Shown here: positions 1 through 16,077 of the stretch, piece by piece | How the letters are laid out: every line of letters begins with the position of its first letter | How positions within the stretch are numbered: the first letter of the stretch is position 1 | IMG/VR virus record: IMGVR_UViG_2778261297_000002 | Length of the DNA stretch: 16,614 nt | Strand: one strand, 5' to 3' | Origin: a virus | Lineage: Duplodnaviria; Heunggongvirae; Uroviricota; Caudoviricetes | The notes under the pieces: model-generated | The model's database searches: none | Told to the model about the DNA's origin: nothing | Seen by the model: only the letters and a program-made list of their open reading frames with translations | Program-made: the position numbers and the translations under genes

Positions 1-1227
1 ATGGCGGGCACTAACAAGCTAAGTGATAAAAAGCTCAAGGCACTCCAGGGGGCCAGCCGTGATGCGCCAGAAATGTATGCAGATGGTGAAGGTTTAAGCG
101 TCAGGGCATCAAAACAGGGTCAACTGAGTTGGGTATTCTCGTACCGGTTGGGTGGAAGGGGTAGCAAACTCGAACGTTTAACGCTTGGCCGTTACCCTGA
201 TTTGTCGCTAAAAGCTGCGAGAGAAAAGCGGGAAAAGTGTCGTCAGTGGCTGGCTGGTGGTCTTGATCCAAAAACAGAGCTTGAACTGAGCACCGAAGAA
301 ACGCTTAAACCTGTGACAGTACAGGATGCTCTCGAATACTGGCTGGTGAATTACGCCAGGAGAAAGCGCAGTGATGAGGAGCTGGTAAGGGCACAGCTAC
401 GCAAGCATATTTACCCGCGCCTTGGTCGTTATCCGCTCACCAGATGTGAAACCCGCCATTGGGTGGCCTGTTTTGATGAAATAAACCTGACCAAACCCAT
501 GACCGCCGGCCGCATGTTTCAGATTTCTAAACAGGCGTTACGTTTCTGCAAGGTTCGCCGCTATGCCGCCAGTGATGCTCTTGCCTTTCTTACCATTCAG
601 GATGTAGGCCAGCCATCCGGCCAACGTGACCGCGTATTGTCAGATAGCGAGCTGGCTGATGTGTGGCGCTCCACAGACAGCGATGATCAGCAGCCTTACT
701 ATTCACGTCTTCTCAAAATGCTAGTGCTGTTTGGTGCACGAACGATGGAGGTTCGCCTCTCTCGATGGTCAGAGTGGGATTTTTCCTCATGGATTTGGAC
801 AGTACCGAAAGAGCACAGCAAAACTCGCGAGAAAATAGTTAGATCGATACCTGAAGCAATACGTCCGTGGCTGGAAGAGTTAAAACGCGAGACAGGCAAA
901 ACGGGACTACTGCTGGGAGAAGATCGCACCCGTCAGGCTGTATCATTGAAAGGGCGCAGGCTTTATAAAGATTTCCACCATAACGAGCCTTGGACGCTTC
1001 ACGATCTGCGTCGCACGTTCTCCACGGGGTTAAACAATATGGGTATAGCACCACATATTGTAGAGCTGCTGCTGGGTCATGCCCTACCGGGCGTCATGGC
1101 TATTTATAACCGTAGCCTGTACTTGCCGGAGAAGCTCGATGCTCTGAACAAATGGTATGACCGCTTAGAACTTCTTGCGGGTAATCATCAAAATGTGGTT
1201 CTGTTATCTGTAACGAATAGAAATTAA
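1..1227 (+). CDS. int: Tyrosine recombinase / phage integrase (P4-type)
   Basis: 408-aa ORF with C-terminal tyrosine-recombinase signature (HDLRRTFSTG ... LLGH ... Y); TAA stop at 1225-1227; position at element edge. Confidence 0.9.
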   Translation: MAGTNKLSDKKLKALQGASRDAPEMYADGEGLSVRASKQGQLSWVFSYRLGGRGSKLERLTLGRYPDLSLKAAREKREKCRQWLAGGLDPKTELELSTEETLKPVTVQDALEYWLVNYARRKRSDEELVRAQLRKHIYPRLGRYPLTRCETRHWVACFDEINLTKPMTAGRMFQISKQALRFCKVRRYAASDALAFLTIQDVGQPSGQRDRVLSDSELADVWRSTDSDDQQPYYSRLLKMLVLFGARTMEVRLSRWSEWDFSSWIWTVPKEHSKTREKIVRSIPEAIRPWLEELKRETGKTGLLLGEDRTRQAVSLKGRRLYKDFHHNEPWTLHDLRRTFSTGLNNMGIAPHIVELLLGHALPGVMAIYNRSLYLPEKLDALNKWYDRLELLAGNHQNVVLLSVTNRN

Positions 1228-1319
1228 AATGATATTGCGGGTCTAGGTCGGCCAACCGAAAAGCGGGATACCCTACCCGTCTGGCCCGCAAATTATTTAG
1301 GGGCGTTGAGGGTGACGGT

Positions 1320-2144
1320 ATGGGTATGCCATTGCGTGAGTATTATCCTATAACTCGAGCGGCTAGTTTATTAGGATATGAAACGAATGATCTTTTACAC
1401 TGGGCCTCTATTGGTTCAATACGATTATTCATTAATTTCGACGTAACCAACATAACAAAAGGGTATGTTGTATTCACAGATGAAGGCCTTTCTTTGAGAA
1501 CGAAATTAATTGAAAAAGGTATCGTTTCTGATTGGTTTTCGAGGGTTTATAATTTAAAAAATATTAGGGATATTAACAGCCCAGACCCTAAAATAAATTA
1601 TGATGGAAGTGAGCTTATTTTAAAGGATGCATTGGAATGTGGGTTTAGTGGCTTTTGGCAACTACCTAAAACATTCTTTGGATTGACCGAGCTTTATGAT
1701 ATTCATCCTCAATTCTTCCAGGTGTGGATGTCAGTATCGAACAAGATGATAGTTAACTTTAATAGTGAGGAACCTATTGATTTTGATTTGGCTGATATTT
1801 ATCTCATGAAAAATGACTTTATCATGTTAAGAGATAGTAGAGATGGTGAGTCATTACCTAGTTTTTATAATGGCGGTGTATTACCTCCTGATACTGAAGT
1901 TTCAACAGTCGCGCTAAATCCAGGGAGGGCAGAACATCATGCAAAAAAGAGAGAGGAAGTATTAAAAGCTGCCATTTATATTAAAAACCACCACCCCGAA
2001 CTGTGTGATAATTATACTAACTGGGCTAATGCTATTAGTGACCATGCTCATAAATTTTGGCGCAGTGGTGAAGCACCCTTATCAATTAAAACGATTGCAG
2101 CATTAATTGGTGAGGCTCATAGGCTACCAACACCATCATCGTAA
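1320..2144 (+). CDS. Hypothetical protein, AT-rich cargo gene (274 aa), no recognisable motif
   Basis: Uninterrupted ORF with GAGG 8 nt upstream of ATG. Sampled lines are about one-third G+C versus about half in flanking genes. A hairpin terminator follows. Confidence 0.6.
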   Translation: MGMPLREYYPITRAASLLGYETNDLLHWASIGSIRLFINFDVTNITKGYVVFTDEGLSLRTKLIEKGIVSDWFSRVYNLKNIRDINSPDPKINYDGSELILKDALECGFSGFWQLPKTFFGLTELYDIHPQFFQVWMSVSNKMIVNFNSEEPIDFDLADIYLMKNDFIMLRDSRDGESLPSFYNGGVLPPDTEVSTVALNPGRAEHHAKKREEVLKAAIYIKNHHPELCDNYTNWANAISDHAHKFWRSGEAPLSIKTIAALIGEAHRLPTPSS

Positions 2145-2172
2145 GTAGGTTCCCGACTTAGCTTAATGTCTC

Positions 2173-2200
2173 CCCGAGTTATGCTAACTCGGGTTTCAAT
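2173..2200 (+). terminator. Putative rho-independent terminator after the AT-rich gene
   Basis: Inverted repeat CCCGAGTT-atgct-AACTCGGG followed by TTTCAAT. Confidence 0.4.
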
Positions 2201-2284
2201 ACCAAGAAATATGCATCAAGATTCTCCAAACAACGCCAGAACAGATAGGAGGTGTTCCTTCTGAGAGCGTTAACTGGAGGGTTT

Positions 2285-2569
2285 ATGCTAAATACTGTTT
2301 TCATCCCACCAACGGCTGAGCAGCGCCGCCAAATTCTTAGGGACTACGGATTTGAATATGACCGACGTATTCGTGAGGCCGAATGCTTGGAAATAACTAG
2401 TCTTTCCCGCTCTACCCGCTGGAATATGGAAAATGATAGTAAGTTTCCCACCCGCTGCCACTTTGGGCGTAACAGCTGCGCATGGCTCCTATCTGACATT
2501 CTTTGGTGGGTTCGTAATCCGCCTTCAGTGTTAAACGTAAATAACCCGCACAGCCGCAAGTCTGCATAA
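2285..2569 (+). CDS. alpA: AlpA-family phage transcriptional regulator / excision activator (HTH)
   Basis: Motif pattern ...LEITSLSRSTRWNMENDSKFP...W typical of AlpA-type regulators; GGAGG just upstream of ATG 2285. The six-frame ORF starts at GTG 2252, so the start is ambiguous. Confidence 0.7.
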   Translation: MLNTVFIPPTAEQRRQILRDYGFEYDRRIREAECLEITSLSRSTRWNMENDSKFPTRCHFGRNSCAWLLSDILWWVRNPPSVLNVNNPHSRKSA

Positions 2570-2685: not shown

Positions 2686-3498
2686 ATGGTATCGAAAAAA
2701 ATTACTACCTTAACTGGTAGCGGCCAAACTCAATCTGAAATCAGCCTAGAGGATATTTCTGGTAATAATTTTGCTGCGCGAATTCCTGTAACCCTGAGCA
2801 ATATCGGCGGGAAAGAAACTCAGTCTGTAAGCGGCCGTAAGCTGCATACGTTTCTGGCTGTAGGGCGTGACTTTACCAACTGGAGCAAAGGGCGCATCAA
2901 GCAGTACGGGTTCGTCGAAGGGATTGATTATATGATTGTCGAATATTTGACCTCGCCAAAACGGGCGAGCTCAAAATCTCGCCAGCGTATTGAGCATGAC
3001 TACATTGTCAGCCTGAATATGGCTAAAGAGCTTTCTATGGTTGAGCGCAACGCGCAAGGCAAGATGGCTCGTCAGTACTTCATCGACTGCGAAGAACGCC
3101 TGCGCCGGGTCGCCCCTGAAGAACATGAGGCGGCGTTGCTGACATGGCGTAAAAATCGTGTAGCAGCTTGCGAAGATCACAAAAGCATGGCCGAGGCGAT
3201 GAAGGGCTATATCGAACGCACTGGAGATAAGCAGCACGGCTTTGCCTACAGCAATGAATGCACCTTCCTCAATAGCCTTGCGCTGGGTATGCACCCGCGA
3301 GCATGGGCGAAACAGAAAGAAATTCCGGTAAAGCAGGTACGCGACCACATGAACACTGAACAACTGGCGCTGCTGGCCTATCTGGAAAGCCGTAACTGCG
3401 CTCTGCTGGATCTGGATACCAGTACGGCAACCCGCAAGACGAAACTCACTGAACTGGCGCAACGTTGGCTGGTTAAAAGAGTGGGAGGTACAGCATGA
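2686..3498 (+). CDS. Phage antirepressor, AntA/AntB-like
   Basis: 270 aa. N-terminal LHTFLAVGRDFTNWSKGRIKQYGFVEGIDY and central SLNMAKELSMVERNAQGKMARQYFIDCE resemble the AntA/AntB antirepressor family; GGAG 8 nt upstream of ATG. Confidence 0.7.
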   Translation: MVSKKITTLTGSGQTQSEISLEDISGNNFAARIPVTLSNIGGKETQSVSGRKLHTFLAVGRDFTNWSKGRIKQYGFVEGIDYMIVEYLTSPKRASSKSRQRIEHDYIVSLNMAKELSMVERNAQGKMARQYFIDCEERLRRVAPEEHEAALLTWRKNRVAACEDHKSMAEAMKGYIERTGDKQHGFAYSNECTFLNSLALGMHPRAWAKQKEIPVKQVRDHMNTEQLALLAYLESRNCALLDLDTSTATRKTKLTELAQRWLVKRVGGTA

Positions 3499-5493: not shown

Positions 5494-5855
5494 CCGATAT
5501 TTTTGAAGTGATAGGCCCATTGTTCCGCAAACTGACCGAAACCTGTATTGCTCACCAGATAGCGGAAACCGGTTCGGCAACCTTGCTGGTGGAAAGCGAT
5601 AAGTATATGGCCCGCTATCGCTTCACGCTGGAGCCGCGCGTAACTGAAAACGTATTGATGAAATATATGATTTTTGGCTGCTTTGAAGAATTCGGGCGCG
5701 ATGAGGGGTTAAGGCGTTTGCGGGATATTCTGCTGACCTGCTTTACCGACGATGGCGATATTAACGAAATGGGGTTGCAGATAGTGAAAAGCTGCCACCT
5801 TGAATACCTGCATGAAGATTTGGAAGCGGATCTTTCCAATAAGGTGCTGCACTGA
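5490..5855 (+). CDS. Hypothetical protein (121 aa)
   Basis: ATGA overlap at 5490-5493; GGAGG at 5476-5480. Confidence 0.6.
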   Translation: MTDIFEVIGPLFRKLTETCIAHQIAETGSATLLVESDKYMARYRFTLEPRVTENVLMKYMIFGCFEEFGRDEGLRRLRDILLTCFTDDGDINEMGLQIVKSCHLEYLHEDLEADLSNKVLH

Positions 5856-7987
5856 TGAAGATGAAAAACGCCCCAAACATTAAGTGTCTGCCAAAGGACA
5901 AGTTTACTGAGGCGATTATTTTTGCGGGGGAAGATGCTTATTCACACGCGCAGCACTGGATCGAGAGCGAGGGGAAAAGGGCGGGGGATGATGTGCCGCC
6001 TGTGTATCTGGGGAAAAAGCAGCTGGAGGAGCTTGAAAGGCTGAATATCATCGATCAGGGGCGTCGTTGCGTACGCGTGATTAGAGCTGGCGAGCTTTCC
6101 GAAATGCAGATAAGCACTATCGCAACCAAACTGGCGCTGGCGGATGTGAAAGAGGCCCGGCTGTTTAATGGCATGTTTGAGCCTCAGCCGAAGGAGAACT
6201 GGACGGATGTACTTCCACGGCTCAGGGAAGATGCCGAGCGTGGGGAAAGTATTGTGGTAAATCTGCCTGTGAAAAAAAGGGAGCCAAAGCCTGAACCGGG
6301 TGATGAACTGAAACCCCGCGTAGAGAGCCGTAACGATGGCCTGTACTGGATCACGCCAAAGGTGGATAAGGACAGCGGAGAAATAATCAATAACGAAACG
6401 TGGCTGTGTTCGCCGCTTGAGGTGGTGGGGTCCGGTAGTGACGGGGCCGAGCGCTATCTCGTTTTGCGCTGGCGTTCGCCACGTGGCCATGAAGATATTA
6501 CCAGGGCGATCCCCTGTGCTGATATCGGTGAGCGTGACGGCTGGCGCTCTCTAAAGGCTGGTGGGGTAAACGTAACGACTAAAAGTACATTCCGGGCAAT
6601 TCTTGCCGACTGGCTACAGCAATGTGGTGCAGGGCAGGAATGGATTATTAGCCATACCACCGGCTGGCATCACGGCGCATACATCATGCCAGATGGTGAA
6701 GTTATCGGTGATCCGGAAATGCCTATTCTCTTTAACGGTCGCAGCGCTGCATCTTCCGGTTATGCCGTGGCTGGAACTGCTGAGAGTTGGCGGGATTCAG
6801 TGGCATATCTGGCAGGAGGCAACCCATCGATGATGCTGGGTGTGGCTGCGGCATTGTCTGCGCCGCTGATCGGGCTGGTGGGCGCTGATGGCTTCGGCGT
6901 CCATTTGTTCGAACAGTCCAGCGCCGGTAAGACTACCACCGCAAATATTGCGAGCAGTATTTGGGGCGAGCCCGACGCTTTGAGGTTGACCTGGTACGGT
7001 ACCGCGCTTGGTATTGCTAACGAGGCAGAGGCGCATAACGACAGCCTGTTACCACTTGATGAGGTAGGGCAGGGCAGCAGTGCTAAAGATGTCGCCACGT
7101 CTGCTTACACTTTGTTTAACGGGGCTGGGAAGTTGCAGGGGGCTAAAGAGGGTGGCAACCGGGAGCTAAAGCGCTGGCGAACTGTTGCGATCAGTACCGG
7201 GGAAATGGATATTGAAACATTCCTGGCTGCTGGTGGAATTAGGGTGAAAGCTGGGCAGCTGGTGCGCCTGCTGAATATCCCCATGGAGAAATCCACGGCC
7301 TTTAACGGGCTGGCTAACGGAAAGGCCCACGCCGATGCACTGAAAGAGTCATGGATTGATAACCACGGCGCAGCAGGGCGTGAGTGGGTAAAATGGCTGG
7401 CAACCCACCAGCAGGAGGCTAAACAGGCTGTGCGGGATGCGCAGACGCGCTGGCGCAGTCTTATTCCGGCTGATTATGGTGAACAGGTTCATCGTGTGGC
7501 TGAGCGCTTCGCCATTCTTGAGGCTGCGCTGGTAACTGGTTCGCCGATAACTGGCTGGAGTGAACAAGCCAGCCGGGATGCTATTCAGCATAGCTTCAAT
7601 GCCTGGGTAAAAGAATTCGGAACAGGTAACAAGGAGCACCAGCAGATCATCGAGCAGTGCGAGGCCTTTCTGAACGCGCATGGTATGAGCCGCTATGCTC
7701 CGCTGCCATACTGCCCGTCAGATATGCCAATTCGTGATATGGCTGGATACCGCGAAAGGGGCAAGCATGATGATTCGCCGATGGTGTTTTATACCTTCCC
7801 TTCTGCGTTCGAAAAAGAGATAGCGCAGGGGTTCAATGCGAAGCAGTTCGCCAGAGTTCTGTCTGAATCTGGAATGTTGACACCCCCAGCAAGCGGCAGG
7901 GGATACCAGCGGAAATCACCGCGTATCGATGGGCGTCAGATTAATGTTTACGTCATTCAGTACCAGCAGGAGGGAACCGAAGAATAA
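5855..7987 (+). CDS. Phage/satellite primase-helicase-like replication protein (P4 alpha-like, P-loop NTPase)
   Basis: 710 aa; Walker A-like FEQSSAGKTTTANIASSIWG in the central region; TGATG overlap with the upstream gene; followed directly by the iteron array. Confidence 0.8.
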   Translation: MKMKNAPNIKCLPKDKFTEAIIFAGEDAYSHAQHWIESEGKRAGDDVPPVYLGKKQLEELERLNIIDQGRRCVRVIRAGELSEMQISTIATKLALADVKEARLFNGMFEPQPKENWTDVLPRLREDAERGESIVVNLPVKKREPKPEPGDELKPRVESRNDGLYWITPKVDKDSGEIINNETWLCSPLEVVGSGSDGAERYLVLRWRSPRGHEDITRAIPCADIGERDGWRSLKAGGVNVTTKSTFRAILADWLQQCGAGQEWIISHTTGWHHGAYIMPDGEVIGDPEMPILFNGRSAASSGYAVAGTAESWRDSVAYLAGGNPSMMLGVAAALSAPLIGLVGADGFGVHLFEQSSAGKTTTANIASSIWGEPDALRLTWYGTALGIANEAEAHNDSLLPLDEVGQGSSAKDVATSAYTLFNGAGKLQGAKEGGNRELKRWRTVAISTGEMDIETFLAAGGIRVKAGQLVRLLNIPMEKSTAFNGLANGKAHADALKESWIDNHGAAGREWVKWLATHQQEAKQAVRDAQTRWRSLIPADYGEQVHRVAERFAILEAALVTGSPITGWSEQASRDAIQHSFNAWVKEFGTGNKEHQQIIEQCEAFLNAHGMSRYAPLPYCPSDMPIRDMAGYRERGKHDDSPMVFYTFPSAFEKEIAQGFNAKQFARVLSESGMLTPPASGRGYQRKSPRIDGRQINVYVIQYQQEGTEE

Positions 7988-15905: not shown

Positions 15906-16077
15906 ACCCCTACAATATTTCCTTGCTATAATCCCCAGCTCTTTGGAATGTGCTCATGCTTATGCGTGATTTCGGCTCTGTGCGATAATCCGTATATCAA
16001 TCGGTGTATCAATATTTACTGAATTGCATAGTGTGAGATTGAATTTAACTGATTAAAATCAGTGAGATATATAGATT

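Follow-up and report, generated by a model that had tools for sequence, protein, structure and literature searches.

A gene of conspicuously low G+C content lies between the integrase gene and the alpA gene in the DNA analyzed here (16,614 nt in total, hereafter the window), raising the question of whether it is exchangeable cargo or a working part of the element that carries it. A preliminary description had favored single-gene defence cargo. The gene is referred to as X, and the position that it occupies as the slot.

The carrier satellite and its slot gene

With high confidence, the window was assigned to a 16-kb PICI-type phage satellite of Escherichia coli EC09 whose insertion site lies between gcd and hpt. 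The main features, with positions in the window, are as follows.

1..1227, + strand: tyrosine integrase gene (int), P4-type (Arm-DNA-bind_3, Phage_int_M and Phage_integrase; Pfam, PHROG), left end of the satellite
1236..1303, + strand: Rfam RF02996 'int-alpA RNA', a branched stem-loop with ATTATTT 3′ of its closing stem (cmscan)
1308..1315, + strand: RBS GAGGGTGA of X, part of a conserved leader common to unrelated slot genes (sequence reading)
1320..2144, + strand: slot gene X, 274 aa, ATG start (ORF call, 535 family representatives, synteny, dN/dS, AF2)
2152..2193, + strand: allele-specific repeats 3′ of the X stop, namely CCCGACTTAG (2152-2161) and the hairpin CCCGAGTTA/TAACTCGGG (2173-2193), then TTT
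2224..2284, + strand: alpA leader, right flank of the variable segment, with the imperfect inverted repeat ACGCcAGAACAG...CTTCTGAgaGCGT and the alpA RBS (inter-island alignment)
2285..2569, + strand: gene for an AlpA-family regulator/excisionase, 94 aa, pI 9.4 (Pfam PF05930, phrog_2790)
15995..16013, no strand: attR, 19-bp direct repeat TATCAATCGGTGTATCAAT, the longest word common to the gcd-int and island-hpt intergenic regions (record L001)

The attL copy of the 19-bp repeat was located 48 bp 5′ of the first base of the window, giving an element of ~16.04 kb; both this length, within the about 10-18 kb of PICIs, and the flanking att direct repeats are those of a PICI. Further satellite genes encode AntA (2686-3498), an Icd-like product, a DUF927 primase (5855-7987), PerC and a TerS-like HTH protein. 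The int, alpA and primase genes are co-oriented and lie in the order expected of a PICI, according to the scheme of integration, Bro, replication and late zones (PMC10111431). AlpA is the master activator of Gram-negative PICIs (PMC6092414). No capsid, tail or lysis gene was found among the satellite genes scanned against Pfam and PHROGs, and several late-zone proteins matched nothing. Relatives were present in four IMG/VR contigs, which are possibly provirus predictions.

The 274-aa ORF between int and the AlpA gene was confirmed by the ORF call, with both neighbors identified by Pfam and PHROG matches, and no ORF of at least 50 aa was found on the opposite strand inside X. Its G+C content, described as about one-third in a backbone of about one-half, was measured as 0.365 (GC3 0.287), compared with 0.503 for int and 0.484 for alpA. 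This is the lowest value of the satellite's 24 genes (z = -3.4), and sliding windows gave 0.33-0.38 throughout 1351-2100. The gene has its own RBS, as had been noted: a Shine–Dalgarno GAGG (1308-1311) lies 8 nt 5′ of the ATG, and GTTGAGGGT was unchanged in nine of nine aligned islands, one with a DUF6387 gene in the slot included. X is a genuine gene under purifying selection, with dN/dS 0.20 (dS 0.21) against its closest allele and hundreds of full-length homologues.

The terminator ascribed to X was borne out only in part. A 9-bp perfect hairpin (2173-2181/2185-2193) is followed by TTT, but the terminator scan gave no call. Binding sites are one possible role of the repeats at 2152-2193, and weak termination is the other. 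The set moves with the X allele, being kept only in islands of the same subtype (the window, L006 and L007), and other X alleles are followed by different repeats or palindromes. In island L005, for example, three 14-bp TTCTAAnCnTTAGA palindromes lie between the slot gene and alpA, with spacings of 21 and 41 bp.

The 92-nt spacer between int and X is filled by RF02996, which cmscan placed after int as a full-length match to the model with 60.8 bits (gathering score 35.8, E 1e-10). This RNA is near-invariant in islands of E. coli, Klebsiella and Pectobacterium, with compensatory changes at four stem pairs, and was found 3′ of int in 17 more loci, among them an island carrying BREX. Conservation of the structured leader and the RBS continues without break to the X ATG. 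RF02996 could function as a terminator or attenuator of int or as a leader of X. The promoter scan gave no promoter-like site between int and X, nor upstream of alpA. Since X has no promoter on its 5′ side and the spacer is filled by the RNA, co-transcription of int and X is more likely than an autonomous unit. The motif itself is of undescribed function, and the X slot offers the first functional context for it.

Family, synteny and exchange at the slot

X had been described as an orphan, which did not hold: in a profile search, 535 representative clusters passed a threshold of E ≤ 1e-3 and 187 one of E ≤ 1e-10. All 535 representatives are unannotated, and their hosts are Enterobacterales, Aeromonadaceae and Vibrionaceae. 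The family lies directly 5′ of alpA in all ~25 contexts examined, and 3′ of int wherever upstream DNA was available and annotated. These contexts cover at least six integration sites in three bacterial orders of Gammaproteobacteria, with one copy within a plasmid. No context other than int-alpA was seen among the loci examined, and 50,697 phage records gave zero matches. A profile search of genome contigs with a narrow alignment returned one locus, and the metagenome contigs of distant members were too short to reveal gene context. With high confidence, X belongs to a large unnamed family confined to the int-alpA slot of AlpA-type satellites. The spacing to int varies: a Grimontia member starts 3 nt after int, and a Zobellella member 19 nt after int, next to fis, which is the PICMI integration site (PMC10803314). 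In one E. coli strain, the X copy is frameshifted.

X alleles are only 25-29% identical between islands whose integrases are 99% identical. Tight co-evolution of X and Int was rejected on these values, and the free variation of X was counted against a tight co-evolving X-Int contact. Between the window and strain 1368KP, int differs at 1 of 1227 nt and the slot gene at 58 of 825 nt, and the differences form a graded recombination tract covering both spacers. Similarity between islands drops precisely at the X ATG and returns ~60 nt 5′ of alpA. These alignments show that recombination exchanges alleles among islands that are identical otherwise. The slot can be described with high confidence as a recombinational exchange point, in which conserved flanks, int and the RF02996 leader on the left and the alpA leader on the right, enclose highly diverged X alleles or, more rarely, unrelated genes of similar size.

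Different genes were found in the same slot when related islands were compared, a check proposed in the preliminary description: at least three unrelated protein families occupy it, plus BREX once, in an island with the same integrase and RF02996. The unrelated occupants, DUF6387 and the family found in island L024, are also AT-rich. In E. coli both genes share 4 nt with the end of int, a sign that their translation may be coupled to that of int in those islands. Nearly always the slot holds one gene of about 250-330 aa, unrelated occupants included, and this constant single-gene size suggests functional equivalence rather than arbitrary cargo. DUF6387 (PF19924; 267-287 aa, near X in size, equally AT-rich and of undescribed function) is the alternative occupant in E. 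coli islands with related integrases and also lies beside AlpA in ICEKp258.2-type islands. Membership of X in DUF6387 was rejected, as Pfam gave no match, BLAST found nothing and the hhalign probability against a bona fide member was 0.5%. Remote homology of X to the L024 occupant was likewise tested and rejected.

Slot occupants were 10-15 GC points under their flanks in all 10 islands measured, and the Aeromonas and Zobellella members of the X family have a GC of about 0.48-0.49. These two observations speak against a recent transfer from a low-GC donor, and this explanation of the AT-richness was rejected. A gene conserved at this position with backbone-like composition had been named as the alternative to cargo. 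One family does fill the slot in most related elements, in partial agreement with that alternative, but its composition is never backbone-like. AT-richness, allele swaps and non-homologous replacement are equally expected of defence or anti-defence cargo.

Some satellites appear to lack a slot gene. EcCIMP1 has only a small ORF at this position, alpA appears to be the second ORF of EcCICFT073 (PMC6092414), and three PICMI subfamilies have no slot gene (PMC10803314). Such apparently slot-less working satellites indicate that an X-type function is not universally essential, and together with the frameshifted E. coli copy they were counted against a role of X in the satellite's life cycle.

Domain organization of protein X

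The absence of a recognizable catalytic motif, noted earlier for X, was upheld by searches of Pfam, PHROGs, PADLOC and NCBIfam, all without a match. The same databases were blank for its relatives, with no Pfam domain in 67 family members, and the PDB sequence profile search with X gave no match. X showed no domain of enzymatic, toxic or membrane type, be it nuclease, ATPase, TIR, Sir2 or transmembrane, and no other effector-like domain. The suggested remote-homology and structure-prediction check was carried out with an AF2 model built from 94 sequences (pLDDT 87.8), an earlier 10-sequence model being poor (pLDDT 67). It gave a MerR/Xis-like N-domain and a remainder without a match in PDB or BFVD. 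Three regions were distinguished.

1320..1484, + strand, codons 1-55: predicted N-domain, beta-alpha-alpha-beta-beta winged helix of MerR/excisionase type, acidic
1485..1919, + strand, codons 56-200: middle region, indel-rich, beta-rich, strongly acidic and variable (conservation, charge)
1920..2129, + strand, codons 201-270: C-terminal module type A, three helices, HAxKREEVLKAAIY..PE.C..WA.AI..HAHKFW..PLS (conservation)

Within the family, sequence conservation is highest in the N-domain. The 'recognition helix' has the consensus E-V-E-D-L-L-H-W, with D24 and H27 nearly invariant. The predicted winged-helix fold is shared with the MerR/excisionase superfamily (Xis, AlpA, TorI, RdfS) and with CbpM, a MerR-fold protein that binds protein and was among the top structural matches of the N-domain. 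However, a basic recognition helix or wing was not found in X, and its surface is acidic where MerR/excisionase proteins place DNA-contacting Ser, Arg and Thr. The mean net charge of the N-domain is -2.5, and the pI of whole X is about 5.7, compared with 9.4 for AlpA. X and AlpA showed no profile similarity, and no Pfam HTH match (HTH_17, Phage_AlpA) was obtained. Foldseek against PDB and BFVD gave no match at E < 0.2, and the ~220 residues beyond the winged helix have no structural counterpart in these two databases.

Conservation in the middle region is limited to G111-x-W113 and roughly residues 160-170, and its mean net charge is -7.8. Information content per block was 0.3-0.9 bits there and 2.5-2.9 at the termini. 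The middle region is therefore a candidate specificity surface. Alternative C-terminal modules occur in other members, and L013 and L033 are chimeric, indicating that the protein is mosaic. The conserved termini, variable middle and shuffled modules fit a protein made of a docking part plus a specificity part.

Possible roles of the slot gene

The iolg/icg genes of PICMI satellites (integrase-overlapping or integrase-contiguous gene; Barcia-Cruz et al., 2024; PMC10803314) resemble X in being single same-strand genes between int and alpA, diverse and of undescribed function. They overlap int by 1, 4 or 13 nt or, as icg, adjoin it, and fall into 13 mutually unrelated families in Vibrionaceae, where a minority of elements lack such a gene (PMC10803314). 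The X members of Grimontia and of the Zobellella element by fis hold the iolg position, and the DUF6387 and L024 occupants share the 4-nt overlap with iolg. In the window, by contrast, the 92-nt RF02996 spacer takes the place of the ATGA overlap of iolg, and the carrier is a 16-kb enterobacterial PICI rather than a 6-kb PICMI. Without iolg, PICMI115 failed to excise, to be packaged and to be transferred, and complementation was done solely with int and iolg as a pair (PMC10803314), so a polar effect on int is a possible cause of the phenotype. The likeness of iolg and X is one of position and diversity, and the need for excision is known for one Vibrio element only. The 13 unrelated families indicate that hypervariability can coexist with a life-cycle role.

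Since the only tested gene at this slot was needed for excision, X is more likely to be a life-cycle factor than a defence gene. We give a little under an even chance to X being an integrase-coupled life-cycle or specificity factor of the satellite. The quiescent island would then express X along with the integrase, consistent with X lacking its own promoter and with a leader RNA and RBS common to the alleles. It might act as an accessory factor, with Int and AlpA, in helper-phage-triggered excision or induction, as proposed for Iolg of PICMI115. Protein-protein contact with a conserved partner, be it Int, AlpA or a host factor, would be made by the acidic Xis/MerR-like N-domain together with the conserved helical module at the C terminus, and the hypervariable middle would set specificity, e.g., the phage signal recognized. 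We infer that X binds protein, not DNA, and has a role in excision or induction. The strict int-X-alpA synteny, the purifying selection, the putative coupling to int, the constant single-gene size of slot occupants, the conserved termini round a variable middle, the acidic Xis/MerR-type N-domain and the iolg precedent were counted for the life-cycle reading.

A bolder and rather unlikely proposal is that the X family, and by extension the slot genes as a whole, would sense the helper phage and determine specificity in Gram-negative AlpA-type satellites. Constitutive X would read a phage signal with its variable middle, and the termini would license alpA activation or Int/AlpA excision. If this were true, an allele swap on an identical backbone would direct the satellite to another helper phage, and X would functionally parallel SaPI Stl while having a novel fold and acting positively, not by repression.

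Single-gene anti-phage defence or interference, in which the variable region senses an infecting phage, helper or not, and X causes a non-enzymatic block or abortive infection, is possible but doubtful. Defence hotspots of P4, P2 and PICI elements were reportedly described by Rousset and colleagues in 2022. The X slot is like them in its core flanks round fast-swapped AT-rich DNA and in the single case of BREX behind the identical int and RF02996 module, and unlike them in having one dominant, position-bound family, a single gene and no known defence domain. A defence gene would be expected to be hypervariable and AT-rich, with alleles replaced by recombination between near-identical backbones, and the openness of the slot to unrelated genes and the dispensability seen in the frameshifted copy and the slot-less satellites point the same way. 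In addition, accessory genes adjoin int in SaPIs (PMC6092414), and satellites are known to carry defence genes (PMC13586616). However, PADLOC gave no match at E ≤ 1, X has no effector-like domain of the kinds listed above, the family was seen only at the int-alpA position whereas known defence genes typically switch among many contexts, and the uniform one-gene occupancy is unlike a typical defence hotspot. In PICMI115, moreover, the defence gene is up2, elsewhere in the element, and the slot gene affected excision. The preliminary proposal thus stands as to a compositionally deviant, exchangeable segment beside the integrase, but defence is not the best-supported role, given the lack of a defence model, the single family and the excision data. 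Another accessory function in the phage-satellite-host interplay (anti-defence, exclusion of rival satellites, or modulation of a host factor), unrelated to excision, is improbable. An acidic, non-enzymatic and fast-diversifying protein that is dispensable in some elements would suit it, and CbpM is a MerR-fold precedent for protein binding, but positive evidence is nil and the strict linkage to int and alpA would be left unexplained.

Even less probable is a classical DNA-binding master repressor analogous to SaPI Stl, with operators 5′ of alpA and derepression by a helper protein. The MerR/Xis-type fold predicted for the N-domain and the allele-specific repeats or palindromes between X and alpA (e.g., in L005) are consistent with such a repressor, and the activation of alpA by helper phages in Gram-negative PICIs is an open question (PMC6092414, PMC10803314). 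Stl, which sets helper specificity in Gram-positive PICIs, is also int-adjacent and extremely divergent (PMC6092414), a likeness of position and evolutionary behavior only, Stl being a basic repressor of HTH type, with a gene divergent to the island operon, and X being co-oriented, acidic and without homology to it. The putative recognition helix (E-V-E-D) and the N-domain charge and pI given above argue against a repressor, and the downstream repeats vary by allele although conservation in the family peaks in the N-domain. A repressor would also predict excision upon deletion, the opposite of the PICMI115 iolg phenotype. In an integron-like cassette, recombination would take place at RF02996 as single-stranded DNA beside the integrase and at an attC-like palindrome downstream, with X as site-specifically inserted mobile cargo; this reading is hardly credible. 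Variability does start sharply after a conserved structured element beside int, each allele has its own downstream palindrome, and such motifs can be single-stranded DNA sites according to their discoverers (PMC5737381). Yet the integrase is a P4-type arm-binding enzyme co-oriented with X rather than IntI, more than one 'cassette' was never present, the tract between the window and 1368KP is graded and includes both spacers, as homologous recombination gives, and the conservation from the RBS to the ATG is accounted for by expression signals.

The literature explicitly leaves open by what means helper phages activate Gram-negative PICIs and PICMIs (PMC6092414, PMC10803314). The present results define a very large, unnamed and structurally novel family that is bound to the int-alpA position in Enterobacterales, Aeromonadaceae and Vibrionaceae. 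For annotators, they are a warning that AT-rich genes beside integrases are not automatically cargo. The natural allele series on isogenic backbones in E. coli and Klebsiella offers tractable material on which excision, induction and helper range can be set against defence.

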